Source: an uncultured delta proteobacterium
Lineage (GTDB): Bacteria; Desulfobacterota; Binatia; Binatales; Binataceae
Assembly: GCA_963842085.1 (NCBI GenBank)
Contig: CAWJET010000001.1
Span: 2,208,001 to 2,272,000 of the forward strand
DNA length: 64,000 bases
Direction: 5' to 3'
Below are positions 2,825 to 19,772 of this stretch, in pieces. Within the stretch, counting starts at the first letter, position 1. Each line of letters opens with the position of its first letter. The position numbers and the translations under genes were made by a program. The notes beneath the pieces were generated by a model. It made no database searches, was not told the DNA's origin, and worked only from the letters and a program-made list of their open reading frames with translations.

Positions 2825-4195
2825 ATGACCCCGCAGAACGCAGAATTCGACGAGCTGGTTTCGCTCGAACGGGGCGAAATCGATCGGCGCATCTACAGCG
2901 ACCCCGCGCTTTTCGAGCTCGAGATGGAGCGAATCTTTGCGCGCTGCTGGCTTTTCCTCTGTCACGAGTCGCAGATTCCCCAGCCCGGCGATTTCTTCCA
3001 GTCGGTGATGGGCCGCGACAATGTGCTCGTCGTCCGCCAGAAAGACGGCTCGATCAAGGCGATGCTCAACACCTGTGCGCATCGCGGCAACGCCGTCTGC
3101 CGCGCCGAAGAAGGCAACGCGAAGAGCTTCCTCTGCACCTATCACGGATGGTCCTACGGCATCGACGGCCGCCTGAACGGTGTACCCGGGCTGAAAACCT
3201 TTTACAGAGGCGAGTTGGATAAATCGCGCCACGGGCTGGCTCAGGTGGCGCAGGTGGCCAATTACAAGGGATTCATATTCGGCACTGAGGATGCCTCCGC
3301 GCCGCCATTGAAAGAATACCTTGGCGCGACTGGCCGACTCGGCCTTGACCTGATTGCTTTGCGGGGCGACATGGAAGTCGTCCCCGGTATTCAGAAGTTT
3401 GTAATCGAGTGTAACTGGAAGATCGCCGTCGATAATCTCTTCGACTGGTATCATCCGCAGATATCCCACGCCTCCGCATTTCAGCCTGGTGTTCTTCCGG
3501 CAGGGCCGGAGCCCACGGGCGGCTTTGAACGAATCGACATGGGCGGGGTCAACATGCAGAGCGGTGCTGGTCTCGATCTTCCCGGAAACGGCATCGCCGG
3601 CACGAAGTTCGAGACACTCGTGGTGCTCGGCGAGTACGGGCACGCGATCGCCGGTCCGAGTACATCTTCGTCAGGCTATTTCGAATTCGACCCAAGTTGG
3701 CGAGGCAACCCGCAGGCGCAGGCTGGACTCGGCCCGGTCGGCAGCCGGGTAGCAGGCCATCCGAATATCTTTCCGACGAGTTGGGTATCTACCACTCTCC
3801 CTCAAATTTCGTTGCGAATCCCGCGCGATCCGACTCATACCGAGATTTGGTGGTTCACGTTCGTCGATCGCAACGCGCCGCGCGAGACTCGCGATTTCAT
3901 TGTGACCATGGCCAATCGGGTTTTTGGTCCGGCAGGCGTTCTCGAACAGGACGATGGGGAGAATTGGGCGCAGGCGACAGCCCAGAGCCGCGGAACTGCG
4001 AGCAAGCGGGTGAAACACTTGCTCAACATGGGCCTGGGCCACGGGAAAATCATCAAGGAAGGGGGCCTCTCGCGAATTCAGGGGCTTACGAACGAGTACG
4101 GACAACTGTGGACCTATCATTCGTGGGCACAATGGATGAAGTCCCTGAAATGGGACGAACTTAGAAAGGCGACCACGCCGGGCGATTGCATATGA
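2825..4195 (+). CDS. Rieske aromatic ring-hydroxylating dioxygenase alpha subunit (HcaE/BphA-like)
   Basis: Rieske motif CAHRG...CTYHGW; mononuclear Fe ligands DWYHPQISH and EQDD; NWK motif. Confidence 0.93.
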   Translation: MTPQNAEFDELVSLERGEIDRRIYSDPALFELEMERIFARCWLFLCHESQIPQPGDFFQSVMGRDNVLVVRQKDGSIKAMLNTCAHRGNAVCRAEEGNAKSFLCTYHGWSYGIDGRLNGVPGLKTFYRGELDKSRHGLAQVAQVANYKGFIFGTEDASAPPLKEYLGATGRLGLDLIALRGDMEVVPGIQKFVIECNWKIAVDNLFDWYHPQISHASAFQPGVLPAGPEPTGGFERIDMGGVNMQSGAGLDLPGNGIAGTKFETLVVLGEYGHAIAGPSTSSSGYFEFDPSWRGNPQAQAGLGPVGSRVAGHPNIFPTSWVSTTLPQISLRIPRDPTHTEIWWFTFVDRNAPRETRDFIVTMANRVFGPAGVLEQDDGENWAQATAQSRGTASKRVKHLLNMGLGHGKIIKEGGLSRIQGLTNEYGQLWTYHSWAQWMKSLKWDELRKATTPGDCI

Positions 4196-4743
4196 GTGAG
4201 CACGCGGGTACGGAATCGGCGCAGCGCGAGGATCGGATTGCGGCGATGCTGCTGCAATACGACGTCGAGCGCTTCTACTACGATGAAGCCGCTTTGCTCG
4301 ACGCACATCGCTACGAAGAATGGCTCGCGCTGTTCAGCGAGGACGCGCGGTACTTCATGCCGATTCGGCGCACGCGTACGCAGCGCGAGATGGACAAGGA
4401 ATTTACCCGGCCCGGCGAAATGGCATTCTTCGACGACACCAAGGAGTTGCTCGCTGGCCGGATTACCAAGCTGAAGACGGGCCGTTCCTGGGCCGAGGAT
4501 CCGCCGTCGCGCACGCGCCATCTGATTACCAATGTTCGCATCGTGCGCGACAACGGCCGCGAGCTCGAGGTCGAATCGAACTTCCACGTGTATCGCACGC
4601 GGCTCAACTCCGAAGAGACGTCGTGGATCGGATCGCGCAAAGATGTGCTGAGAAGGGCAGGGGAATCGTTCCAGATCGCCGATCGGCGGATCTACCTCGA
4701 ACAGACGGTGTTGCTCTCGCGCAATCTGAGTAACTTTTTCTGA
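4192..4743 (+). CDS. Aromatic ring-hydroxylating dioxygenase beta subunit (HcaF/BphE-like)
   Basis: EAALLD..YEEWL, WAEDPPSRTRHLITNVR, C-terminal NLSNFF; ATG overlaps the alpha stop (ATGA). Confidence 0.92.
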   Translation: MSEHAGTESAQREDRIAAMLLQYDVERFYYDEAALLDAHRYEEWLALFSEDARYFMPIRRTRTQREMDKEFTRPGEMAFFDDTKELLAGRITKLKTGRSWAEDPPSRTRHLITNVRIVRDNGRELEVESNFHVYRTRLNSEETSWIGSRKDVLRRAGESFQIADRRIYLEQTVLLSRNLSNFF

Positions 4744-4744
4744 T

Positions 4745-5557
4745 ATGGGCTGGCTCGAAAACAAGGTCGCGCTCGTCACCGGGGGCGCTTCGGGGCTCGG
4801 GCGCGCAATCGTCGAGCGCTTCGTGCAGGAGGGTGCGCGCGTAGGGATTCTCGATCGCGCGCGCGATCGCAGCGAGGATTTGGCGAAACGGCTCGGCGAC
4901 GAAGTGCTGGCAATTGTTGGCGAGGTCACGGTGCTCGCCGATAACCATCGCGCGGTCGCGGAAACAGTTGCCAGGTTCGGCCGGCTCGATTGTTTCGTCG
5001 GCAACGCTGGCATCTGGGATTTCGGGATGTCGCTCGCTGCGTTGCCCGAAGATCGAATCGACAAGGCATTCGACGAGCTATTCGGTGTGAACGTGAAAGG
5101 CTACATGCTGGGCGCGAAGGCGGCGTATCGCGAGCTCGCGAAGACGCGCGGCTCGATCATTTTTACCGTCTCCAACGCCGGCTTCTATCCGTGCGGCGGC
5201 GGGCCTCTGTACACGGCGTCGAAGCATGCAGTCGTCGGGCTGATCCGGCAGCTTGCGTACGAGCTCGCGCCGAAGATTCGGGTCAACGGTGTCGCGCCCG
5301 GCGCGATTCCGACCGATCTGCGCGGGCCGCGCTCGCTCGACATGGGCGAGCAATCGATCGCTGCGGTGCCGCTCAAAGAGATGGCGGAGCGCGGGATTCC
5401 GCTCGGCAAACTGCCCGAACCGCGCGACTATACCGGCTCGTACGTGCTGCTCGCGTCAGGAGAAAATTCGTCCACCGCAACCGGCGGTGTGATCATCTGC
5501 GAAGGTGGCATCGGCATCAGAGGTTTCGTCGACGCGGCGGGCGGCCGCGACCTATAG
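4745..5557 (+). CDS. cis-dihydrodiol dehydrogenase (HcaB/BphB-like SDR)
   Basis: TGGASGLG, GNAGIWD, SNAGFYP.GGGPLYTASKHA, typical of BphB/HcaB. Confidence 0.9.
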   Translation: MGWLENKVALVTGGASGLGRAIVERFVQEGARVGILDRARDRSEDLAKRLGDEVLAIVGEVTVLADNHRAVAETVARFGRLDCFVGNAGIWDFGMSLAALPEDRIDKAFDELFGVNVKGYMLGAKAAYRELAKTRGSIIFTVSNAGFYPCGGGPLYTASKHAVVGLIRQLAYELAPKIRVNGVAPGAIPTDLRGPRSLDMGEQSIAAVPLKEMAERGIPLGKLPEPRDYTGSYVLLASGENSSTATGGVIICEGGIGIRGFVDAAGGRDL

Positions 5558-5575
5558 CAAGGAGAGAATCGAACG

Positions 5576-6448
5576 ATGAGCGCAATCGAAAGCCTGGGCT
5601 ATGTAGGGCTCGGCGTGAAAGATCCCGCAGAATGGGAAAAGTTCGCGACGGATATCCTTGGGCTGCAGAGCAGCGCGTCCAACGGCCGCCGGGTGCTGCG
5701 GATGGACGACTACGCGTTTCGCTTCGCACTGGAGCAGGATGCCTCCGACGATATCGCGTACGCCGGATGGGAGGTCGCCGACGCGAGCGGCCTGCGCGAG
5801 GTGGCCGAGCGGCTGCGCGCTCTCGGCGTGGAAGTTCAAGCCGCGAGTGCCGACGATGCCGCCCGGCGGTGCGTCACTGAGATGATTCGCTTTGAAGACC
5901 CATTCGGCCTCAAGTGCGAGGCGTTCTACGGACCTTCGATCGAAGCGACGCCGTTTCGATCGCCGCGCCCGATCGACGGATTCGTCACCGGCCAGCAGGG
6001 CCTCGGGCACATTGTCGTCGGCGCTCCGGATATGCAGAAGAGCCTGCGCTTCTACACCGAGGGGCTCGGCTTTCGCCTGAGCGACACCATCGACATGAAG
6101 TTCGGCGACATGAAATTCACGATGGCTTTCATGCATTGCAACGCGCGCCATCACACCGTCGCGCTGATTCCGTTCCCCACGCCGAAGAAGCTGCATCACT
6201 TCATGATGCAACTGCGCTCGATCGACGACGTCGGCTCGACGATGTATCTGGTGCAGGATCGCAAGATCGAAATCACCGCGACACTCGGCCGTCACTCCAA
6301 CGATCACATGCTGTCGTTCTACCTGCGCACGCCGTCGGGCTTCGAGATCGAGTACGGATGGGGCGGGCGCGAGGTCGACGACGCGACCTGGCACGTGCAG
6401 AAGCATCACGCGCCCAGCATCTGGGGCCATCGCCGCGGCGGGATGTAA
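5576..6448 (+). CDS. Extradiol ring-cleavage dioxygenase (BphC/HsaC-like, VOC fold)
   Basis: IESLGYVG, GLGHIV, HCNARHH, LHHFMMQ, GRHSND.MLSFYLRTPSGFEIEYG, WGH. Confidence 0.92.
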   Translation: MSAIESLGYVGLGVKDPAEWEKFATDILGLQSSASNGRRVLRMDDYAFRFALEQDASDDIAYAGWEVADASGLREVAERLRALGVEVQAASADDAARRCVTEMIRFEDPFGLKCEAFYGPSIEATPFRSPRPIDGFVTGQQGLGHIVVGAPDMQKSLRFYTEGLGFRLSDTIDMKFGDMKFTMAFMHCNARHHTVALIPFPTPKKLHHFMMQLRSIDDVGSTMYLVQDRKIEITATLGRHSNDHMLSFYLRTPSGFEIEYGWGGREVDDATWHVQKHHAPSIWGHRRGGM

Positions 6449-6481
6449 CGGGCGATGGAACAGGCACAGCTCAAGGAAATC

Positions 6482-6963
6482 GCCCTGGTACCGGTCTGTA
6501 ACACCGGATGAGTATTGTGCCGGCCGGCATCCTTGTTGATCTCGATGCCGAATGCACTCGACAATTGCTCGGCAACTTTCCGGCAGCCGAAGCGTGGATT
6601 TCGCCGCTTCATCTCGACGACCGCGTCAATCGCTTCTTTTGAGGGACCTTTGGGTCCAGGGCGATGACGCTTTCTCGAGTTGTAGAGAAGATAATACTTG
6701 CGCTTCACCAGGGCGTGGTAAAATCTCAGAAGAGTGGAAGGCTTCAGTATCACGGCCATCTTGCTCAAGCGTTCGCGTGACACTCTCAGCGTCAGCCGAT
6801 CCGTTCAAGTCAGATTCGGAGCACGTTGCCGCGAGCGCTTCATGATGAGTAACTGGTGTTTGACCGCGAGTGATTCTGCCGCCACTGCCCGAAGACCGCC
6901 CCTCCTGGCAAGCCTCGCCAGCGTGACCAGCAGATGGGCGGTCAAGATGAACATTTCTCGCCC
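6482..6963 (-). pseudogene. Integrase-core transposase, degraded N-terminal half
   Basis: (G)REMFILTAHLLVTLARLARRGGLRAVAAESLAVKHQLLIMKRSRQRAPNLT*TDRL...KPSTLL...RPGPKGPSKEAIDAVVEMKRRNPRFGCRKVAEQL...; in-frame TGA at 6805-6807, frameshift near 6520 (then ILIRCYRPVPG). Confidence 0.85.
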
Positions 6964-7053
6964 GGAAGCGAACTTTAGCGGTAAGTGAAGGACCCACAAG
7001 AGTGCGTTTCGGAAGTGGTTTCTGCCAGAACTAGCAATTCGCCACAGACGGGT

Positions 7054-7746
7054 TCAGCTTTGTGAGTGCTGACGTTTAAGGAATTCGATCTCTTCCTTCG
7101 TCGATTGCCGTCCGAGCGCCTGGTTTCGGCCGGGAAACCTGCCGAATCGCCGAATTGTATCAAGATGCAAGTCGGCTGACTTCCGGATTGCCGTACTTTC
7201 CGGGGATTCGCCGTATTCGTCCGCGAGAGCGACGGCCAGGCGCACCGATTCCATTTGATCCTTTAGATGTTCACTGTGTTCGAAGGGCAGATACAAAAAC
7301 ATCCGCATGACTTGCGGCAATTCGCGATCGAATCCGGATGCAATTGCGTGACGGCTGACCTCGCGTGCTTTAGCGTCCGTCGCAAACGCTCGCGCGGTGT
7401 CGCGGAACATGTTGCGTGGAAATTGATCCAGCAATAATACCAGCGCGAGACAACTTCTGGGGGCTTTCTTCCAGCTGTCCAGGCGGCCAAACGCAGCGTC
7501 CAGGTAACTGTTGAGGAAAAGAGACTTACAAAGCCGGTCGAACTCGGGATCGGGCACGAACCATCGTGACCAAAGATGGACGGCATCCTCGGCGGCATGA
7601 CCGGGCGTCATCCAGAAATTGAGGATGCGCTCCGCTTGCGAAGCTGTGCGTCTGCTGTCCGGAGGGTCTTTAGAAGATACGCTTCGTCCGGCCTTTGATC
7701 CTGGTTTTTTCGCATCTTGGGCGATCTTTTGCTTGCGCCGCTCCAT
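7054..7746 (-). CDS. DUF924 family protein
   Basis: ILNFW...WF..DPEFD, LALVLLLDQFPRNMFR, FLYLPFEHSE, IRRFGRFPGRNQALGRQST.EE. Confidence 0.9.
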   Translation of the reverse strand: MERRKQKIAQDAKKPGSKAGRSVSSKDPPDSRRTASQAERILNFWMTPGHAAEDAVHLWSRWFVPDPEFDRLCKSLFLNSYLDAAFGRLDSWKKAPRSCLALVLLLDQFPRNMFRDTARAFATDAKAREVSRHAIASGFDRELPQVMRMFLYLPFEHSEHLKDQMESVRLAVALADEYGESPESTAIRKSADLHLDTIRRFGRFPGRNQALGRQSTKEEIEFLKRQHSQS

Positions 7747-7750
7747 CGCC

Positions 7751-10700
7751 CTATGCGTTTAGTTCCTGAAGGAGCGCCCTGGCATCTCTCAAGTCCGCGG
7801 TGTCGAAACCTTCAGTGAACGATCCGTAGACTTCGGCGAGCAGCGGGCGCGCCTCTTCGCGGCGATTCAAGTCTTGCAGCAGCCGCGCAAGGCTGGTGCT
7901 GGCGCGCAACTCCCACGATTTGGCTCGTTGCTTGCGTGAGATATCGAGCGCCGAGTGAAAGGACTGCTCGGCCGCGGCCGCATTCGCCTTGTCGTGGCCC
8001 AATAGCAGTTCACCCTTCAGGCGATGCAACTCCGCCTGATAGTACTGTTGGCCGGTCCTCTCGGTGAAAAGGAATGCCTCCTCTAGCGCGGCGAGCCCCT
8101 CTTCATACCGCCCTGCGCGGCCCAGGGCCGTGGCGACAAATGTAAGACACCGATCGGTTATATACTCGGAGCCGCCGGCCTTAAGCTGTGACATGTGGGC
8201 TTTCATCTTCGCGATGCCACCCTCCAGGTCGCCGTCGAGCACATCGGCCCATCCCAGATAGATTTCGCTGAGCGCCCTGCCCGTGAACAGACCGGAAGCG
8301 GTCGCTATTGCGAGTCTGGCCTCCGCTCTGGCTCGCATTTGCCGGGTTTCGCGCCGAAGCTCGCAAATGTAGGCCGCGAATCCATTCAAGTCGCCGATCA
8401 AGCTCTTTGACCTACGATTATCCGTTGCGGTCGCGCTATTCATTCGTTCCACCGCTCGATCGGGGTAACCGAGAAACCACAGGTTCCAACCTGAAATGAT
8501 GCGATTGTTTTCCAATGTGTAGAAAAGCTGGACCGCTGCCTGCGCCTGGGAAATCTGTGTTGCGCGTCCGTCCGTGAAACCTGATGCCGGTTTGGCGATC
8601 GATTCCAGAACTGTCCATGTTCGATCGAAAGCATCGGCGGCGGCTTCGAAATCCCCCGCGACCATTTTGGTGTAGGCCAGCCAATTGCCGGCTTCCGCGA
8701 GGAGTCCGTCGGCGCCGTGTTCTTCGGCGCGCGCGACCAATTCGGAAGCGATCGCTCCCGCTCTCCGCACGTCGGGACGCATCTGCTGCACGAAGTAAAT
8801 GCCGAAGAGCGCCCACCAGCTTTTTTCCCAGTTGACGCCGGGACGTTGACAAAGGGCTATTGCGCGCTCGGTCGAGCCTTCGACTTCTGGCGAAGCGAGT
8901 CCCTTTATATCTCCGAGGGCGCTATAGGCCGCGTTGCGCAGGTCCAACTCCCGGTCGGCGCGCGACTCGTCGTCGGGAAGCTTCTGTAGGAGATCGAGTC
9001 CGGTTTCGAAAAGCGCGACTGCCTCGGCGAGCGAGCCGCGCGCTTGGCTTTGCTCGATCGCAAGGAGGCAATATCCGACTGCTTTTTCGTGATTACCGCT
9101 GCGGGCGTAGTGGTACGTCAGCGCCGCAAGGTGATCGCCCAGGTTATCGCGATAGACCGATTCCAGGCCGTAGCCGATCCGTTCGTGCAGCAACCGCCGG
9201 CGTTCATTGAGAACCGAGTTATACGCAACGTCATGGGTGAGAGCATGCTTGAACGTGTACTCAAGGTCTCCTACCGCCGGCTGTTCGTAGATGAACTCAC
9301 CCAGCTGAAGCTCGGATAGCATCGACTCCAGGTCAGATGCTGCCGGGTCCGCATCTTTGCGCGACAGAGTCAGCGCCATCGTTGCCGCTTCGGGATTCGT
9401 GCTCGCAATCGCCGAGATGGTTGGCGGCTGCCATACCTGACGAACCAGACCGAGCTTGAACTCCATTCCGATGACGGCGAGCGTTTGCAGCAAATCTTTC
9501 TGGTCCGGCGGCAAGCGGTCGATGCGCGCGGCCAGGATTGCCTGAACCGTGGGTGGAATCTTCAGCTCGCGCAGCGGTTTGGTGAGCCTCGTAGTGCCGT
9601 TGCGCACCAGTGCCCCTTCGTCCAGGAGAACCTGTACAGTCTCTTCCATAAAGAAGGGGTTGCCCTCGGTCTTCTCTATGATGATCCGCTTGAGTGGTGC
9701 TAAATCCGGCTCGCTCCCAAGCAGAGCGGTCAGCATCTCATCCGCGCTTTCCTTACCAAGCGGGTCGAGCCGCAACTGCGTATAGTAGGTTTTGTTCCCC
9801 CATTCGTGGCGGTACTCCGGCCGATAGTTGACCAGGAGCAGGATCCGCGCGGTGCCGATAGAGTCCGCGAGCAAGTTCAGAAACGCCTGCGACTCACTAT
9901 CGATCCAGTGCAGGTCTTCGAATACGACGATGAGCGGCTGGTTCAGGCTTTCGCGCAGAAGTATCCGCTTGACCGCGTCGAGCGCGCGATGCTTTCGAGT
10001 TTGTGCCTTGATTTCCGCAATCTGATTGTCTTCATCGGCGATGCCGAGCAGGCCGTACAGGTACTGAAGCGTATCTTCCAGCGAACGATCGAGCGTCAGT
10101 ACCTTGCCGTTGATCTTCTCGCGCCGCTTGCGCGCATCATCTTCGGACGAAATCTCGAAGTACGAGTACAGCAGGTCGATCAGCGGAAAGAATGCTGAAG
10201 CCTGTCCGTGTGAGACCGAGAATGCTTCGAGCACCATCCAGCCCGATCGCGACGCAGCCTTGAACTCGAACAGGAGGCGTGACTTGCCGACCCCCGCCTC
10301 AGCCATCGCCGCGACGATCTGGCCGCGCCCCGCTTTCGCCTGCTCGGCGGCGCGTTTGATGGCTTGTATTTCATTCTGCCGCCCGACGAACTTGGTGTAG
10401 CCGCGCCCCGCCGATCGCTGCAGACGAGTGCGCAGAGGTCCCAGCCCTGTTACTTCGTACAGCTCAACCGGTTCGCTGACCCCCTTGATACGCGCGAGCC
10501 CCAGCCCGTTGAGCGTGAAGTAGCCCTCGACCAACCTGCTCACAGCGCGAGTGATCGCGATCGATCCCGGTGGCGCCAGCGCCTGCAATCGCGAGGCGAG
10601 GCTTATCGAGTGACCTATCGGCGAATACTCGGTGTCTGTCTCACCCTTTTTTATTGTTCGGACCACCACTTCGCCGACATTGACCCCAATTCGGATCGTG

Positions 10701-11230
10701 ACGGGTGGCTCTCCGCGCTCTCGCAGCCGATCCGAGTAACGCCTGAGGTCCTCCTGCATGCGCAACGCGGCATAAAGCGCGTGCTGCGGATGATCCTCGA
10801 GCGCAATTGGCGCGCCGAACACCGCGAAGATTCCGTCGCCCGTCGATTGGGCGACATAGCCGCCGTAACGGCGGACTGCCTCGATCATCAGCTGAAGGGC
10901 CGGATCAACGATCGCGCGCGCCTCTTCGGGATCGAGGTTCTCGATCATCTCCATCGACCCCTTGATATCGGCGAAGAGCGCGGTGACAGTCTTCCGCTCG
11001 CCTTCACTGGCGGCGGGATCATGCTGCTCCGGCACGGGCGCGGGCTCGCTCGCAGCCGGCTTCGTAGCACGCGCTTTCGCATCGAGTGGGGCGCCGCAAT
11101 CGCGGCAGAACTTCGCGGGAGGCGAATACTCCGCGCCGCACTTCGGACACTTGGCGGCAAAAGGATTCCCACACTCAGCGCAGAATCTGGTGCCGGGCGG
11201 ATTTTCGGAGCTGCAGTTTGAGCAGCGCAT
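7751..11230 (-). CDS. Double zinc ribbon + class III cyclase + AAA (STAND) ATPase + TPR protein
   Basis: Four CxxC at N-terminus; RKTVTALFADIKGS, STGDG; Walker A-like AEAGVGKS; Walker B VVFEDLHW; GNPFF; C-terminal TPR-like region ending WELRASTSLARL...EGFDTADL. Confidence 0.92.
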   Translation of the reverse strand: MRCSNCSSENPPGTRFCAECGNPFAAKCPKCGAEYSPPAKFCRDCGAPLDAKARATKPAASEPAPVPEQHDPAASEGERKTVTALFADIKGSMEMIENLDPEEARAIVDPALQLMIEAVRRYGGYVAQSTGDGIFAVFGAPIALEDHPQHALYAALRMQEDLRRYSDRLRERGEPPVTIRIGVNVGEVVVRTIKKGETDTEYSPIGHSISLASRLQALAPPGSIAITRAVSRLVEGYFTLNGLGLARIKGVSEPVELYEVTGLGPLRTRLQRSAGRGYTKFVGRQNEIQAIKRAAEQAKAGRGQIVAAMAEAGVGKSRLLFEFKAASRSGWMVLEAFSVSHGQASAFFPLIDLLYSYFEISSEDDARKRREKINGKVLTLDRSLEDTLQYLYGLLGIADEDNQIAEIKAQTRKHRALDAVKRILLRESLNQPLIVVFEDLHWIDSESQAFLNLLADSIGTARILLLVNYRPEYRHEWGNKTYYTQLRLDPLGKESADEMLTALLGSEPDLAPLKRIIIEKTEGNPFFMEETVQVLLDEGALVRNGTTRLTKPLRELKIPPTVQAILAARIDRLPPDQKDLLQTLAVIGMEFKLGLVRQVWQPPTISAIASTNPEAATMALTLSRKDADPAASDLESMLSELQLGEFIYEQPAVGDLEYTFKHALTHDVAYNSVLNERRRLLHERIGYGLESVYRDNLGDHLAALTYHYARSGNHEKAVGYCLLAIEQSQARGSLAEAVALFETGLDLLQKLPDDESRADRELDLRNAAYSALGDIKGLASPEVEGSTERAIALCQRPGVNWEKSWWALFGIYFVQQMRPDVRRAGAIASELVARAEEHGADGLLAEAGNWLAYTKMVAGDFEAAADAFDRTWTVLESIAKPASGFTDGRATQISQAQAAVQLFYTLENNRIISGWNLWFLGYPDRAVERMNSATATDNRRSKSLIGDLNGFAAYICELRRETRQMRARAEARLAIATASGLFTGRALSEIYLGWADVLDGDLEGGIAKMKAHMSQLKAGGSEYITDRCLTFVATALGRAGRYEEGLAALEEAFLFTERTGQQYYQAELHRLKGELLLGHDKANAAAAEQSFHSALDISRKQRAKSWELRASTSLARLLQDLNRREEARPLLAEVYGSFTEGFDTADLRDARALLQELNA

Positions 11231-11248
11231 CTGCCGATTCCGGGCCCG

Positions 11249-11950
11249 CTACGGCTTGACGACCTCGCCGCGATGATCCTTGTACATCCGGTCGCGCCAG
11301 GCGAATACTTCAGAGAACGCCGGATCGTCGCCGAGCTGGTCGCGGTAGACGAACCGCAGTTCCGGCGTAAAGACGAAAAACTTTTGGGGCGCCGCTTTCA
11401 ACACCATCAGCATCGCTGCGACGGTCACGTCGGCGCGAGTGAACGTATCGCCGACCAGATATTGACGCCCGCTCAGCGTGTCCCTGAGACTCGTCAAGAT
11501 CCTTGTGGCAGTGAGCCTGCTCTGCTCTTCCGCAAATTCTGAGTAGCCGTACTTTTCCGCGAAGTACTTTCCGCTCTTTTGCGCTTCGGGATCGTCGATG
11601 CGGAGCAGGCGCCCGGTGATCAATGTGCGACCATGGGGTCCCAGCGCGTTAAGCGCGATCTCCTCCCATAGCGTCACCATCGCGCGCTCTTTCGCCGACT
11701 TGGGTAACAGCGCCGGCTCCGGTCTCGTTTCCTCGAGCCAATCCAAAATTGCGCTGGAATCGGGAATCACCTTATCGCCAGTGATCAACACCGGCACCAT
11801 CGCCTGGCCGGTCAACTTCTTCACCGCGGCCTCGCCGACGCCGGGCTCGTAATTCTGCTTCTCGTAGGGCAATCGTTTGAATGCGAAGGCCCATCGGACC
11901 CGCTCCGACCAGGGCGATCCGTACATTGTGATCAGCTTGGTTGTGCCCAT
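11249..11950 (-). CDS. Glutathione S-transferase family protein
   Basis: SPWSERVRWA, VPVL, DSSAILDWLE, YLVGDTFTRADVTVA; GGAGG 7 nt before ATG at 11950. Confidence 0.88.
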   Translation of the reverse strand: MGTTKLITMYGSPWSERVRWAFAFKRLPYEKQNYEPGVGEAAVKKLTGQAMVPVLITGDKVIPDSSAILDWLEETRPEPALLPKSAKERAMVTLWEEIALNALGPHGRTLITGRLLRIDDPEAQKSGKYFAEKYGYSEFAEEQSRLTATRILTSLRDTLSGRQYLVGDTFTRADVTVAAMLMVLKAAPQKFFVFTPELRFVYRDQLGDDPAFSEVFAWRDRMYKDHRGEVVKP

Positions 11951-11996
11951 GATCAAACCTCCCCGAGGAATCCTTTCGATGTTTCACCCCCCGAGA

Positions 11997-12064
11997 ATCG
12001 TAAGGCGGTCGAAGCTGGCCGCCAATGCTTTTTGGCTGAACTTTGTCTGAACTCGATCTGAACT
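11997..12064 (-). promoter_or_regulatory. Putative promoter of the GST-cyclase-DUF924 operon with three phased heptamer direct repeats
   Basis: Minus strand TTGGCG (12020-12025)-N17-TACGAT (11997-12002); CTGAACT starts at 12036, 12047 and 12058 on the + strand (exact 11-bp period). Confidence 0.65.
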
Positions 12065-12136
12065 TTCGCGGAAAAAAGAATGCGTCGAGCCTATACGCTC
12101 GCCAGACGCGGAAGTAGAATCGGCGAAAGCCGCAAA

Positions 12137-15079
12137 ATGCCCAATGATCTCGTCCAGTTCGACGATTTTGTGTTGAATCGCTCCGCTTGCGAGCTCCGCC
12201 GTGGCGATGCGTTAGTGCCGCTACAGCGGGTTCCGCTCGAGCTTCTATCTTTCTTGCTCGAACGCCGCGGGAAGTTGGTTACGCGCAAGGAGATTCTGGA
12301 ACGCGTGTGGGGCAAAGGGGTTTTCGTCGATGGCGAGACCAGTATCAACACCGCGGTGCGAAAGCTCCGACGGGCGTTGTCAGACGATCCTCACGCGCCG
12401 CGATTCGTCGCGACGGTGCCGGCGAGAGGTTATCGATTCGTCGCGGAAATCCGCTCGCCGAAGCCGGGTATTATGGCGCGTCCCGCAGGCCCGCGATCGT
12501 CGGTAATGGTAGGGCGCGAGCACGAGCTGGCCTCATTGATTGGCGGACTCGACGATGCGGCGGCGCGGCGCGGGCGGTTGTTTCTGATTTGCGGCGAACC
12601 GGGCGTGGGCAAGACGCGGCTGGCAGACGAGGTGGCGACCGTTGCCGAGGCGAAGCGAATGGCGCTGATGGTCGGGCACTGCTCGGAACACGATGAAGCC
12701 ATCGCCTATCTGCCTTTCGTTGAAATCCTGGAAAACTTCGTGGAACGCTCCGAGCGTCCGGAGCGTTTGCGTGCCGCATTGGGAACCGACGGTCCGGAAC
12801 TCGCCCGCTTACTTCCCAAGCTGAAAAAAGTTGTACCGGAACTTCTTCCCCCGATAGCTTTGCCGCCTGCTCAGGCCCGACGCCACCTGCTCAACTGCTT
12901 CTTCGACTTCGCCGCTCGCGCTGCTTCCACTCGGCCGGTACTTATGATTCTCGAAGATCTTCATTGGGCCGACGATTCGACCTTGGCCCTGCTGGATCAC
13001 ATCGCGCAGCGGCTTTCGGATCAGCCGTTGATGGTTATCTGCACCTATCGCGATGCGGAGACGAACATCACACCGGTCCTGGCACGGACGCTCGAGGATC
13101 TCGTCCGCGGCCGACTCGCGACCGAAGTAAGGCTAAAGCGCCTGCCCCGCGGCGAAGTCGCCGCCATGCTGAGCAGCCTGAGCGGAAAGCCGCCGCCTCA
13201 GGGCATCGTTGCGGAAATATTCGCGGAGACCGAAGGTAATCCATTCTTCGTCGAAGAACTCTTTCATCATCTCGAAGATGAAGGTCGACTCTACGATGCG
13301 GAGGGACAATTCCGTTCAAAACTCCAGATCGGCGAGTTGGATGCGCCGCGCAGCGTTCGGCTTGTGGTCGCGAGACGACTGGCGCGGCTCGGCCGACTCA
13401 CCCGGGAGATACTGGCGGCCGCATCGGTGATTGGAAGATTTTTCAGCTTCGAAGTTCTTCAGGCTCTCTACGACGACGATGCCGATTCGATTCTGGAATG
13501 CCTCGAAGAAGCGGAGAAGGCAGGTCTACTGGTGTCGGTCGCGACCGGCTCACAGGCGCGGTTTGCCTTCTCACACGAGCTGATTCGTCAGGCGGTGCTC
13601 GGCGGTTTGTCGGCGATGCGGCGTCAGCGACTTCATTTGAAAATAGCTGACGCAATCGAGCAAATGGCTTCCACCATGTCCGAACAGACATCTGCCACGA
13701 GCCGCGACGAACTGGCCGCCCAGCTCGCGCATCACCACGCCCGGGGCGGAAATCCGGACAAGGCCGTCGAGTACTACCTAAGCGCCGTTCGGCAGCTTGC
13801 GGACCTCGGCTCCAACGTCGAGGCGATTGCGATGTTCAACGCAGGCCTTGAACTATTGGGGGAACTACCTGATGACGACCGGCGGACAAAGCTGGAGATC
13901 GACCTTCGATTCGCCGCCAACGAACCATTGGGAGACAGCAAGGGGCTGGCATCGGCGGAAATAGAGCAGTCGATCGACCGCGCGCTCGCGCTATGCAAAA
14001 GGCCGGGGATCAACTGGGAAAGAACCTGGTGGGCTTTGTACAACGCGTTTTGGGTTCACCATCTCCGTCCCGATACCCGCAGGGCGCGCGATATCGCTGC
14101 TGAGCTTGTCGCGGGAGCCGAGGGGAAGGGTACCGCCGCGCATATTGCGGAGGCCGAGACTTCGTTTGCTTGGGCGAGGATGTACTCGGGTGAGTTCGAG
14201 CTCGCTGATCAAGGCTTCGAGCGTGCGTGGGTGCATCTGGAATCGATTCAGAACCGCGCATCGACTTTACCGCCGCCCGATGGATCCGATCGCGAAGTGC
14301 GTACTATCTCGCAACTAGGCACTCCTCAGAACAACCGTGCGGTATCCGGGTGGAACCTGTGGTTCATGGGCTATCCGGATCGCGCGGTGGAGCGAATGAA
14401 TGTCGCCACGGCAATCGCGAATGCGGGGGTTAAGACGATGCTCGCTGACATCCACGGCTTCGCCAGTTACATTCACGAGCTTCGCCGCGAACCCGAGCTG
14501 ATGAAAGCGCGGGCCGAGGCAAGGCTGCAGCTTTCAATCGAATGGGGCTATCCCACCGGCAAGGCATTGAGCGAAATCTACCTCGGCTGGGCCGATGCGA
14601 TAGCAGGCGATTTGGAGCGCGGCATGGCGCGCATACGACAGTATCTGTCCGAAGTGAAGGCCAGCGGCTGCGAGTACGTGTATGACCGGTGCCTCTCGTT
14701 CATAGCAATCGCGCTCAGCCGAATGGGACGGTTCGATGAAGCGCTCAAAGCCATCGACGAGTCATTTTCCTTCACCGACAGAACCGGCCAGCACTACTAC
14801 GAGGCCGAACTGCATCGACTAAAGGGCGAGCTACTGCTAGCCCGCAATCCATCAGACGGCGCGCGCGCTGAGCGATGCTTTCGCTCCGCGATCGATATTG
14901 CGCGCGAGCAGCAAGCGCGTTCCTGGGAATTGCGCGCCGCGACAAGCCTCGCACGACTTGCGAGAGGCACGAAACGTGAGAGTGGGGCGCGAACTATTCT
15001 GTCGGCAGCCTACGGATGGTTCACGGAGGGTTTCGATACCCGGGATCTGAAAGATGCTAGGGTGCTACTCAACGACTAG
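12137..15079 (+). CDS. OmpR/CadC-type winged-helix + AAA (STAND) ATPase + TPR regulator
   Basis: N-terminal Trans_reg_C-like (LVTRKEILERVWG...SINTAVRKLRRALSDD...ATVPARGYRF); GEPGVGKT; ILEDLHWAD; GNPFF; TPR-like C-terminus. Confidence 0.92.
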   Translation: MPNDLVQFDDFVLNRSACELRRGDALVPLQRVPLELLSFLLERRGKLVTRKEILERVWGKGVFVDGETSINTAVRKLRRALSDDPHAPRFVATVPARGYRFVAEIRSPKPGIMARPAGPRSSVMVGREHELASLIGGLDDAAARRGRLFLICGEPGVGKTRLADEVATVAEAKRMALMVGHCSEHDEAIAYLPFVEILENFVERSERPERLRAALGTDGPELARLLPKLKKVVPELLPPIALPPAQARRHLLNCFFDFAARAASTRPVLMILEDLHWADDSTLALLDHIAQRLSDQPLMVICTYRDAETNITPVLARTLEDLVRGRLATEVRLKRLPRGEVAAMLSSLSGKPPPQGIVAEIFAETEGNPFFVEELFHHLEDEGRLYDAEGQFRSKLQIGELDAPRSVRLVVARRLARLGRLTREILAAASVIGRFFSFEVLQALYDDDADSILECLEEAEKAGLLVSVATGSQARFAFSHELIRQAVLGGLSAMRRQRLHLKIADAIEQMASTMSEQTSATSRDELAAQLAHHHARGGNPDKAVEYYLSAVRQLADLGSNVEAIAMFNAGLELLGELPDDDRRTKLEIDLRFAANEPLGDSKGLASAEIEQSIDRALALCKRPGINWERTWWALYNAFWVHHLRPDTRRARDIAAELVAGAEGKGTAAHIAEAETSFAWARMYSGEFELADQGFERAWVHLESIQNRASTLPPPDGSDREVRTISQLGTPQNNRAVSGWNLWFMGYPDRAVERMNVATAIANAGVKTMLADIHGFASYIHELRREPELMKARAEARLQLSIEWGYPTGKALSEIYLGWADAIAGDLERGMARIRQYLSEVKASGCEYVYDRCLSFIAIALSRMGRFDEALKAIDESFSFTDRTGQHYYEAELHRLKGELLLARNPSDGARAERCFRSAIDIAREQQARSWELRAATSLARLARGTKRESGARTILSAAYGWFTEGFDTRDLKDARVLLND

Positions 15080-15125
15080 CGCGATAACCAATTCGATCGC
15101 AGAACGTTAGAGTGCGCCGCTGTCC

Positions 15126-15219: not shown

Positions 15220-15642
15220 TCAGCGTGTCGCGGATTTCAGGGTGGCGGCTTCTACTCGGGCGCGGGCTAGTTGCAGGGCTTCCTGAGCTGGCTGGTAGGC
15301 TGGGTCGTAGAAGCTCAGAGTTGAGAATTGTTCGTCGGCTTGTTGTACTTCGGCGGTCGCGGCGCTTGCGTCGATGGTCTCGGGGGATTCGGCGCTGCTG
15401 GCTAACACTGTCATTACGCTGTCTTTCACTTCGGCCAGGCCGCCGGAGACTACCCAATGCATCCTGGTGCCATCGGGGAGGCGCGCTTCCAGGACGCCGG
15501 GGACTAGCGACGTTATGAAGTTGATGTGTTCGGGCAGGACACCGAATTCGCCTAGCGGTCCTATGGCTGAGACTTCTTCGGCGTCGCCTTCGAAGACTAT
15601 GCCGGTGGGCGTGACCAGTCTGAATGGGAACGTTGCGGCCAT
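15220..15642 (-). CDS. atpC: ATP synthase F1 epsilon subunit
   Basis: LVTPTG, GEFGVLPEH, VSGGLAEV; directly downstream of atpD. Confidence 0.95.
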   Translation of the reverse strand: MAATFPFRLVTPTGIVFEGDAEEVSAIGPLGEFGVLPEHINFITSLVPGVLEARLPDGTRMHWVVSGGLAEVKDSVMTVLASSAESPETIDASAATAEVQQADEQFSTLSFYDPAYQPAQEALQLARARVEAATLKSATR

Positions 15643-15654
15643 CGTGGGATTCCG

Positions 15655-17292
<1,638 letters not shown>

Positions 17293-17294
17293 GT

Positions 17295-18200
17295 TCATCC
17301 GCGCAACGCCTCGGCACCGCCGACTATGTCCATCAACTCGCGCGTGATTTGCGCCTGGCGGGCGCGGTTCATCTCAAGCGTGAGCGACGAGATCATGTCG
17401 TTGGCATTGTTGGTCGCACTATCCATCGCGGTCATGCGCGCGCCCTGCTCGCTGGCTTCGGCCTCGAGCAGAGCGTGAAAGACGGCGGCTTCGAGATATC
17501 CGCGCAGCACGACCGGCACCAGTTCCTCGCGCGAGGGCTCGATCAGGTAGTCGATTTTGGGCGCGTCGGACTTCGAGACAGACGCGTCAACTTCGGCGCC
17601 TGGCTTGATGCCCGCGTCGCCCGGCGGCTTGATCGGCAGCAGGCGCTCGTAAAGCGGCTTCTGCACGAGGGCGGACTGGAAATGAGTATAGACGATGCCG
17701 GCTTCGTCGATGGCGCCGGAGCTGTAGTCGGCAAGCATTTTGGCGGCGATATCGCGGGCGAGCGCGATGGTGGCGAGGCGCGGAAGATTGTCGACTCGCG
17801 AGAGCGCGACCGGCACGCCGGCGCGGCGGAAATGATCGACGGCCTTTTTACCGACCGCAAACAGTTCGATGTCGAGTCCGGCGCCGCGGATTTCGCGCTG
17901 CGTCGCTTCGGCCGCGCGGAACAGGTACGAGTTGTAGCCGCCGGCCAAGCCGCGATCCGACGCGACCACCACCAGCAGTGAGCGCTTTTGCGCGCCCTCG
18001 ACCGGGCCGACCGAGATTCCCTCCGAGGTGAGCAGGGTATCAGCTACGCGCACCAGCGCCTCGCTGTAAGGCAATGCGTTGACGAGTGCTTCCTGCGCTC
18101 GACGCAGGCGCGCGGCCGAGACCAGCTTGAGCGCGCGCGTTATCTGCTGCGTTGATTTGGCCGACGCGATCCGGCGCCGGATTGCCTTGAGCGATGCCAT
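17295..18200 (-). CDS. atpG: ATP synthase F1 gamma subunit
   Basis: QITRALKLVSAA, SDRGLAGGYN, ASEQGARMTAMDSATNNA, NRARQAQITREL. Confidence 0.97.
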   Translation of the reverse strand: MASLKAIRRRIASAKSTQQITRALKLVSAARLRRAQEALVNALPYSEALVRVADTLLTSEGISVGPVEGAQKRSLLVVVASDRGLAGGYNSYLFRAAEATQREIRGAGLDIELFAVGKKAVDHFRRAGVPVALSRVDNLPRLATIALARDIAAKMLADYSSGAIDEAGIVYTHFQSALVQKPLYERLLPIKPPGDAGIKPGAEVDASVSKSDAPKIDYLIEPSREELVPVVLRGYLEAAVFHALLEAEASEQGARMTAMDSATNNANDMISSLTLEMNRARQAQITRELMDIVGGAEALRG

Positions 18201-18218
18201 CGTCGAGCGCTATCGCGA

Positions 18219-19772
<1,554 letters not shown>

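Follow-up and report, generated by a model that had tools for sequence, protein, structure and literature searches.

How did two neighboring genes with different outputs come to encode similar sensors, and do their products read the same signal? The question is raised by positions 7054 to 15079 of a 64,000-nt stretch of DNA (the window), which lies in the 4.93-Mb genome G000. In the list of open reading frames (ORFs), this locus contains four genes. Those for a glutathione S-transferase (GST) family protein, for a cyclase fused to a STAND ATPase (cyc), and for a DUF924 protein are on the minus strand. The gene for a STAND regulator with a winged helix-turn-helix (wHTH) domain (reg) is divergent from them, on the plus strand. 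Both STAND proteins consist of an effector, a NOD/ATPase module (NOD), and a C-terminal TPR sensor. The original prediction described one sensor domain wired to two outputs, a cyclase and a transcription factor. Below, G-numbers denote genomes of the genus, and L-numbers denote loci taken from those genomes.

The regulator is a recombinant. It combines the wHTH and NOD of a wHTH-STAND lineage with an ~450-aa sensor of the adjacent cyclase-STAND lineage. The cyc and reg proteins are 40% identical over 915 aa (BLASTP), and the similarity is very uneven. Their NOD regions are 26% identical, and their last ~435 aa are 54% identical, in agreement with the claim that the sensors are alike while the AAA regions are only generically similar. 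The reg NOD is 65% identical to that of the paralog L003, and the cyc NOD is 71 to 75% identical to those of the unlinked paralogs L004, L001, and L007. The sensors of L003 and L005, whose NODs are related to that of reg, are only 28 to 30% identical to the reg sensor.

The breakpoint is sharp. Sliding-window and change-point analysis placed it after residue 532 of reg (residue 706 of cyc), in the motif LAHH/ARGGN (the slash marks the break), and the near-optimal range was aa 507 to 564. Left of the breakpoint, reg is identical to L003 at 235 of 377 positions (62%) and to cyc at 86 of 377 (23%). Right of it, the counts are 133 of 425 (31%) for L003 and 233 of 425 (55%) for cyc. The DNA similarity of the reg sensor to the cyclase sensors of relatives starts at 13728 to 13733. 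The TPR superhelix opens with a conserved motif, at which the junction lies, and the C terminus of the sensor has a conserved closing motif of its own. Four peptide blocks had been quoted as matching between the two proteins. These hold up, with reg matching cyc at 25/36, 21/24, 20/21, and 7/10 residues. The closest unlinked paralogs (L001, L004, and L007) match the same blocks at 17 to 20/36, 13 to 16/24, 15 to 18/21, and 0 to 3/10.

Genome G000 has at least 14 STAND paralogs of the cyc or reg kind. The unlinked loci L001, L004, and L007 encode sensors with 46 to 54% identity to those of the pair, and raw identity therefore leaves the kinship of the sensors unsettled. Trees were built from the sensors and NODs of the window, of 12 G000 paralog loci, and of 32 loci in 20 further genomes of the genus. 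Pieces were kept only if they aligned over at least 380 aa, so broken or shortened copies were dropped. Among those lost in this way were the cyclase sensor of G051, which is split; the regulator of G056, which runs into a contig end; and a 173-aa fragment in L011.

In the 57-row sensor tree, one clade (SH-aLRT, 100) unites all 17 cassette-cyclase sensors with 14 regulator sensors, and all unlinked paralogs fall outside it. A careful 44-row tree, from which 13 long-branch rows were omitted, contains the same clade (UFBoot, 100; SH-aLRT, 99). An approximately unbiased (AU) test rejected a topology in which the cassette-cyclase sensors join 10 unlinked sensors of the cyclase clade and leave the regulators outside (log-likelihood difference, 67.7; P = 0.0071). 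The NODs tell a different history. In the 60-row NOD tree, cyc and reg are placed in two deep clades (support, 98 and 98), and the reg NOD belongs to an 18-row clade (SH-aLRT, 99) alongside wHTH-STANDs that bear other sensors. Joining the regulator and cassette-cyclase NODs was rejected by the AU test (log-likelihood difference, 797; P = 5e-44). The sensors are therefore sisters while the AAA domains are not, as had been proposed, and the sensors of the pair are closer to each other than to those of unlinked paralogs.

The regulator sensors are not monophyletic in the free trees. They form three groups, and those of G019, G004, and G046 lie inside the cyclase group (95/98). A single origin of the regulator sensors was not rejected by the AU test (P = 0.142). 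Concerted evolution or recent gene conversion within the pairs was considered and rejected. Identity within a locus is not above identity between genomes, and the sensor DNA is ~64% identical.

Exchange of sensors is common in the family. The regulators of G061 and G055 occupy the same position and are ~87% identical at the nucleotide level over aa 1 to 540. The proteins are ~30% identical over aa 541 to 930 and at least 77% identical over the last ~50 residues. This difference is the replacement of an internal cassette, bounded by two breakpoints. L012 and L035 have a second sensor type in common (82% identity over 448 aa). L012 is a split cyclase-STAND on contig 2 of G000 (1273614 to 1277148), and L035 is a wHTH-STAND of G004, another species. 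Their NODs share ~25% identity, the same motif (AELAHHY) marks the junction, and the two proteins are not coresident. Among NODs of the wHTH clade that are ~70% identical, at least four sensor types are found.

The motifs at the sensor ends, HHYAR at the beginning and SWELRA...TEGFDT..DL at the close, hardly vary among 44 sensors and could plausibly serve as homology handles for exchange. An orphan C-terminal fragment of a cassette-type sensor, 173 aa long, is located at 5001 to 5519 of L011 (G000 contig 2, 808857 to 809375), just upstream of another cyclase-STAND gene. It is ~50% identical to both cyc and reg. It is probably the remnant of a recombination event.

The four genes are kept together in other genomes of the genus. 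The relatives are named as "delta proteobacterium" or as Candidatus Binatus/Binataceae. A search of 47 genus genomes with the cyc sensor gave matches at E values of 1e-60 or less in 25, including the unpublished G023. By coordinates, 12 of the 47 have a cyclase-type and a regulator-type gene ~6 kb apart on opposite strands. Locus annotation found the divergent wHTH-STAND/GST-cyclase-DUF924 arrangement in 14 genomes, the window included, and so upheld the expectation that the neighborhood would be found elsewhere. The two sensors match in 12 of these arrangements. That of G056 is cut by the contig end, and G055 has a regulator with an unrelated sensor. All four genes are single open frames and the sensors match in 7 of the 14 (the window, G016, G003, G013, G061, G049, and G046). 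The G055 copy likewise has four single frames.

The cassette has sharp limits. Compared with G016, G049, and G059, the window shows DNA homology over 7047 to 15092 with 88 to 91% identity. At both ends, the homology breaks off within ~13 nt of the outer stop codon, and the DNA on either side is unrelated. The cassette is therefore a discrete 8-kb unit and is probably mobile.

The arrangement in the window is real. The junction of reg and the intergenic region is bridged by independent soil-metagenome contigs from four runs of two studies, and these contigs span the whole of reg. All of them are DNA contigs, and no RNA run was listed for the locus. An assembly artifact is ruled out by the loci of the relatives and by these independent contigs across the chimera junction. 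The ORFs and Pfam matches agree with the description of divergent DZR-cyclase-AAA-TPR and wHTH-AAA-TPR genes. The GST, cyclase, and DUF924 genes form a tight operon that faces away from reg, again as described. The gaps are 18 nt between GST and cyc, 4 nt between cyc and DUF924, and 180 bp between GST and reg. The start of reg is the ATG at 12137. The in-frame ATG at 12080 is not the start, since orthologs align only from 12137. The GST likely starts at the ATG at 11950, which has GGAGG 7 nt upstream. The features are listed in Table 1.

Table 1. Features of the cassette and its surroundings (window positions unless a locus is named)
Feature	Position	Strand	Description
IS-like remnant	6484..7049	.	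Abuts DUF924 end of cassette
DUF924 protein	7054..7746	-	230 aa, last operon gene; Pfam PF06041
Cyclase-STAND protein (cyc)	7751..11230	-	1159 aa; Pfam DZR, Guanylate_cyc, AAA_16, TPR_12
TPR sensor of cyc	7754..9112	-	aa 707-1159; AlphaFold model, MalT domain III match
NOD/ATPase module of cyc	9113..10393	-	aa 280-706; cyclase-clade type; NOD tree
Class III cyclase catalytic domain of cyc	10457..10996	-	aa 79-258; alignments to 2w01, 3r5g
Double zinc ribbon of cyc	11084..11224	-	aa 3-49; Pfam PF12773, PF13240
GST family protein	11249..11956	-	First operon gene; GST_N_3, GST_N_2, GST_C
Divergent control region	11957..12136	.	180 bp
Three CTGAACT heptads	12036..12064	+	4-nt spacers, 11-bp phasing; candidate operator of reg
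TAGAAT -10-like hexamer	12115..12120	+	16 nt upstream of reg ATG
wHTH-STAND regulator (reg)	12137..15079	+	980 aa; Pfam Trans_reg_C, AAA_16, TPR_12
Winged-helix DNA-binding domain of reg	12218..12439	+	Pfam PF00486, 63.8 bits
NOD/ATPase module of reg	12509..13732	+	aa 125-532; wHTH-clade type
TPR sensor of reg	13733..15076	+	aa 533-980, 448 residues; cassette-cyclase sensor lineage
Natural cyclase-STAND/DUF924 fusions (1314-1351 aa)	L124 4539-8591, L127 4886-8890, L128 2750-6691		G048, G007, G004

The control region contains the phased repeats behind which the original prediction had placed the operon. The three heptads begin at 12036, 12047, and 12058. The window contains one exact match to the site and one overlapping match with two mismatches (0.01 expected). 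The triple phased CTGAA site is unique in the genome (0.0086 expected). It is also conserved. Each of the 14 intergenic regions compared has triple heptads with a CTGAA core, spaced by 11 bp, ~90 to 100 nt upstream of the regulator start. Eight of these have exact CTGAAC three times, three have one variant heptad, and three have CTGAAG three times. CTATRCGCT and AGTAGAAT (or CTAGA) are conserved 3' of the heptads in the intergenic regions, and the TAGAAT -10-like hexamer is conserved in the orthologous promoters. A scan of the control region for the sigma-70 consensus called no promoter, TAGAAT included, and the counts were not above those of shuffled sequences.

The heptads go together with the type of DNA-binding domain. 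The same heptad module precedes wHTH-clade paralogs with other sensors and other neighbors (L026, L027, L031, L032, L036, and a second copy in L126). In two diverged wHTH variants the repeats have diverged, and the heptad type follows the wHTH sequence type. This covariation is consistent with binding and is no proof of it, the two being linked. G009 lacks the regulator, and its homology to the window runs out at 12068, immediately beyond the third heptad.

Other elements were seen in or near this region. A GC-rich hairpin with a T-run is located at 12004 to 12023, between the GST start and the heptads. It is terminator-like on the plus strand. The GCCAATG part 3' of the hairpin is conserved in relatives. 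In several genomes, a gene of ~180 aa is found between the regulator and the GST (L117, 8752 to 9321; L123, 10256 to 10795; L124; L125; and L127). The same type of gene is opposite other wHTH-clade regulators, upstream of L027, L031, and L032. Its product, for which there is no Pfam match, begins like a signal peptide and carries the pattern H...CC.H..M at its C terminus. We take the C-terminal pattern to resemble a cupredoxin copper site. The gene may be the ancestral divergent target of the regulator lineage.

Both NODs have intact nucleotide-binding motifs. The P-loop regions match Pfam AAA_16 at 69.8 and 93.9 bits in the two STAND proteins. In cyc, Walker A is GVGKS at aa 313 and Walker B is VVFEDLHW at aa 435. 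In reg, Walker A is GVGKT at aa 156 and Walker B is MILEDLHW at aa 270. The wHTH of reg has PDB sequence matches to the DNA-binding domains of KdpE, RstA, PhoB, OmpR, and CadC. In the PDB search with reg, only the wHTH domain was matched, and neither AfsR nor MalT was found at E values of 0.01 or less.

The sensor is all-helical. The AlphaFold model of cyc aa 721 to 1159 has 22 helices (pLDDT, 93.3; pTM, 0.91). It matches MalT domain III (1hz4) with a Z score of 26.6 over 359 of 366 residues, with a root mean square deviation of 4.1 and Foldseek TM scores of 0.66/0.78. Eukaryotic APC/APPBP2 scaffolds have Z scores of ~28, slightly above MalT, and the peptide-binding proteins Rap, NprR, and AimR have Z scores of 20 to 24. 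The match of the model to the MalT fold is thus a generic TPR superhelix likeness.

The cyclase domain of cyc contains both metal-binding Asp residues (D88 and D132) and the transition-state Arg (R214). The substrate-defining pair is Gln128/Ser203 in the window, not the canonical Lys/Asp (ATP) or Glu/Cys-Ser-Gly (GTP). Among 30 family members, 28 have Gln in place of the Lys, and 26 have Thr in place of the Asp. The cyclic nucleotide product is not readable from the atypical Gln/Ser(Thr) pair, and activity may be reduced. The genome contains 10 cNMP_binding matches over the cutoff, none of them inside the cassette. Two cyclase-clade paralogs of G000 (L004 and L007) seem to lack an effector and have zinc-ribbon/cyclase coding just upstream, outside the main frame. 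Frameshifts in the genes or errors in the assembly account for them, and they do not represent a separate architecture.

The GST has a thioredoxin-like N domain and a helical C domain (Pfam GST_N_3, 66.5 bits; GST_C, 25.2 bits). Its N-terminal SPWS motif is of the Ser type and aligns with SPFS of the GST 7dwf. The nearest structures, for the N domain only, are tau/zeta-class GSTs and maleylpyruvate isomerase. The GST reached no NCBIfam equivalog cutoff.

The DUF924 protein matches PF06041 at 200.5 bits over profile positions 1 to 178 of 180. It has a structural homolog in Atu0120 (PDB 2i6h; E = 4e-29). It is present in a single copy in G000, and of 81 sampled genomes of the phylum, 3 contain the family. 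An in-frame fusion of DUF924 to the C terminus of the cyclase-STAND is found in 3 of 18 cassette loci. Among the top 120 metagenome protein clusters of sensor homologs, 7 contain PF00211-PF06041 fusions, and an eighth contains a partial fusion. Because of these natural fusions (Rosetta-stone evidence), DUF924 would work with the sensor end of cyc, and it is probably a physical accessory of that end.

The neighbors of the cassette are of other kinds. A biphenyl-type aromatic degradation cluster lies directly upstream, at 2825 to 6448. It encodes the alpha and beta subunits of a Rieske ring-hydroxylating dioxygenase, a short-chain dehydrogenase, and a BphC-like extradiol dioxygenase. This cluster is not beside the cassette in the other genomes compared. 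On the other side, the genes for ATP synthase F1 (epsilon, beta, gamma, and alpha; 15220 to 19772) converge on the 3' end of reg and are ordinary. The insertion sequence (IS)-like remnant holds an ORF at 6406 to 6783 on the minus strand with a weak match to HTH_32 (22.7 bits, below the cutoff). DNA like this remnant (70 to 82% identity) is beside the cassette in G049 (twice) and G061.

The best overall explanation, which we hold with middling confidence, is an 8-kb accessory signaling cassette of an uncultured soil genus that contains two MalT/AfsR-like STAND switches with different outputs. The mechanism is drawn by analogy with MalT, AfsR, and Rv0386. Both STAND proteins would rest closed and ADP bound. 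A ligand in the MalT-domain-III-like sensor would open the NOD and lead to ATP-dependent oligomerization. The oligomerized regulator would set its winged helices on successive heptads and activate the divergent promoters, that of the operon and probably that of its own gene too. Oligomerized cyc would join its catalytic domains into active dimers and produce a cyclic nucleotide. This would be a coherent feed-forward circuit, in which the signal induces the cyclase gene and is also needed to switch the cyclase on. The GST may act on the ligand or on a related metabolite.

The same or a related ligand would be most likely for both proteins because the two sensors share recent ancestry. Recognition of the same or chemically related ligands is plausible, since the sensors are closest to each other in lineage and the pair was retained across the genus though swaps are easy. 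A feed-forward circuit on the same ligand is plausible. An electrophile or a glutathione conjugate had been suggested as the ligand. Nothing points to either besides the presence of the GST. A bolder form of the explanation is that the cassette is a one-ligand, two-protein version of the Rv0386 design. TPR sensors would then be exchangeable between transcription-factor and cyclase chassis, and any signal could be wired to either output. We put this forward tentatively. The exchange handles would be two motifs that flank the sensor, LAHHYAR on its N-terminal side and SWELRA...TEGFDT on its C-terminal side, a detail that is just as tentative.

Several observations weigh against the best explanation. 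In six of the 14 cassettes, one or more genes are split, either through real decay, perhaps, or through errors of long-read assembly. The operon occurs without the regulator in G009, G012, G007, and a second G004 locus, and the regulator occurs without the operon in G007 and G019. The sensors of the pair are 54% identical in the window and 54 to 75% identical across genomes, sensors within a genome are no more alike than sensors of different genomes, and their specificities may have diverged. With these identities and no concerted evolution, the words "one sensor domain" were an overstatement. The G055 regulator has an unrelated sensor at the same position, which means that matched sensors are not obligatory. 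The groups compared in the AU tests were chosen once the trees had been seen. The heptads go with every wHTH-clade paralog, whatever its neighbor, and may serve autoregulation only. They end 50 bp upstream of the -10-like TAGAAT, unlike SARP boxes. The transition-state Asn of the cyclase is replaced by Ser210 in the window, and cyc may be weakly active or otherwise employed. This position is Ser in 9, Asn in 20, and Val in 1 of 30 family members, and Ser is common to the window and its six closest cassette orthologs. In an alternative explanation, sensors recombine often at the conserved junction motifs, the regulator took the sensor of its nearest donor, the two sensors have since diverged toward different ligands, and the only functional link left is control of the operon or of the regulator's own gene. 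Such a by-product without shared sensing is possible, and we doubt it. It would fit the frequency of swaps in genomes with roughly 10 to 30 STAND paralogs each (G061/G055, L012/L035, and at least four sensor types), as well as the divergence of the paired sensors, the heptads beside all wHTH-clade paralogs, and the many broken or incomplete pairs. Against it stand the matched pair, which was kept in 12 genomes across the divergence of the genus when swaps are easy, and the whole 8-kb unit, which shifts together between contexts. In the quoted peptide blocks, moreover, reg is much closer to cyc than the unlinked paralogs are.

Two further accounts were considered. The sensors could read a foreign protein, as in Avs or NLR-like systems, and the cyclase could make an alarm nucleotide as in Pycsar. 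The STAND architecture, the discrete unit in variable contexts with IS remnants alongside, and the atypical specificity residues of the cyclase would suit such an anti-phage or conflict system. The cyclase domain also matches PADLOC PycC models (best, 57 bits; E = 4e-16), but these matches are no better than the generic Pfam cyclase match (66 bits). The regulator, GST, and DUF924 have no PADLOC match save one weak match to mad8. The cassette contains no cyclic-nucleotide-binding effector, the partners of the cyclase being the GST, DUF924, and the regulator, and many paralogs per genome are located among ordinary genes. Alignment of the sensor extends over the entire small-molecule-binding domain III of MalT, although generic TPR scaffolds score as high. 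Nothing specific points to a defense role, which we regard as improbable. The other account, a hetero-oligomer of both proteins like that of paired NLRs, draws only on the likeness of the sensors and on the genes lying side by side. STAND proteins oligomerize through the NOD. Hetero-oligomerization is unlikely because the oligomerizing NODs are from two deeply separated clades. They are 26% identical and split by long branches, and each protein occurs without the other in several genomes. This part of the original prediction is the least probable of all.

If the bolder form of the explanation, with exchangeable sensors, is true, the regulator and its heptad operator would be a ready-made reporter for ligands of the large unstudied cyclase-STAND-TPR family. 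The cassette is a natural handle in this respect, a transcription factor with a unique candidate operator that bears a cyclase-lineage sensor, and a promoter-reporter screen could reveal what this sensor type detects. The organism is uncultured and several copies are broken, so the practical value depends on heterologous expression.

The cassette can be compared with several known systems. MalT of Escherichia coli likewise has a NOD ATPase followed by a TPR-like superhelical sensor, and the sensor model covers its domain III. The working model of inducer-driven opening and oligomerization comes from MalT, according to the available text of PMC4381067. Reg has an N-terminal OmpR-type winged helix, whereas MalT has a C-terminal LuxR HTH.

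AfsR and PimR of Streptomyces resemble reg in their N-terminal OmpR-type DNA-binding domain, NOD, and TPR and in their heptameric direct repeats. The available text of PMC5930380 gives the operator of PimR (SARP-LAL) as three heptamers with 4-nt spacers, and that of PMC10936776 gives the spacing of SARP repeats as 11 or 22 bp. Reg is without the BTAD (no Pfam match at E values of 0.01 or less). There are ~24 residues between the end of its wHTH (aa 120) and the start of AAA_16 (aa 144), in a 999-aa numbering. The repeats of the cassette end 50 bp, not 8 bp, from the -10-like hexamer. Reg also belongs to another phylum and shares its sensor with a cyclase protein.

The mycobacterial proteins Rv0386, Rv1358, and Rv2488c (class IIIc cyclase, MalT-type ATPase, TPR, and LuxR HTH) likewise fuse a cyclase to a STAND ATPase and TPR. 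They have cyclase and DNA-binding outputs under one sensor type, and Gln at the substrate-defining Lys position is a further likeness. The pair in Rv0386 is Gln57/Asn106. In the cyc family, Thr or Ser takes the place of Asn as the second specificity residue. Cyc also has an N-terminal double zinc ribbon and no C-terminal LuxR-type HTH (no HTH among the Pfam matches). In the cassette, each output has its own gene and its own NOD, and the two NODs are from different clades. In Rv0386-type proteins, the cyclase and HTH are on one STAND-TPR chassis, and a dependence of the guanylyl cyclase side activity on the glutamine-asparagine pair is mentioned (10.1101/2024.03.06.583649, available text). The same text gives the role of the Rv0386 TPR region as not known. 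Cyclase-STAND-TPR proteins related to Rv0386 are abundant in soil bacteria and mycobacteria.

Two other systems resemble parts of the cassette. The NCBIfam model TIGR03903 (TOMM system kinase/cyclase fusion) matches the cyclase-ATPase-TPR part, with 351 bits for cyc and 261 bits for reg. Both scores are far below the cutoff of 705.75 bits, and there is no kinase domain and no TOMM neighborhood. Pycsar differs in that the cassette has no adjacent effector, that its neighbors are GST, DUF924, and the regulator, and that the PycC matches are generic.

Both protein types are annotated generically, as "class 3 adenylate cyclase" and "DNA-binding wHTH protein/predicted ATPase." In the available literature text, including that of PMC13581612, we found no description of a cyclase-STAND/wHTH-STAND pair with a shared sensor lineage, and none of a sensor-cassette exchange between the cyclase and wHTH output classes; supplements to these papers could list such cases. 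The locus had been put forward as an undescribed system. That stands for the arrangement and fails for the parts, which are known MalT/AfsR-like and Rv0386-like types.

Domain shuffling in fungal NLRs and in the variable effectors of antiviral STAND proteins is similar in that modules are exchanged sharply between paralogs. Module exchange gives many combinations of effector, NOD, and sensor, according to the available text of PMC4986451. The cassette differs from these in that the sensor was exchanged, between a transcription-factor and a cyclase lineage, and in that the product was kept beside its donor in a conserved cassette. It is an unusually clean exchange of a sensor module between two STAND output classes, with sharp breakpoints and recurrent, and it bears on the diversification of NLR-like receptors. 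What is new is the split two-output arrangement together with the cassette-like exchange of sensors, built from parts that are all of known types.

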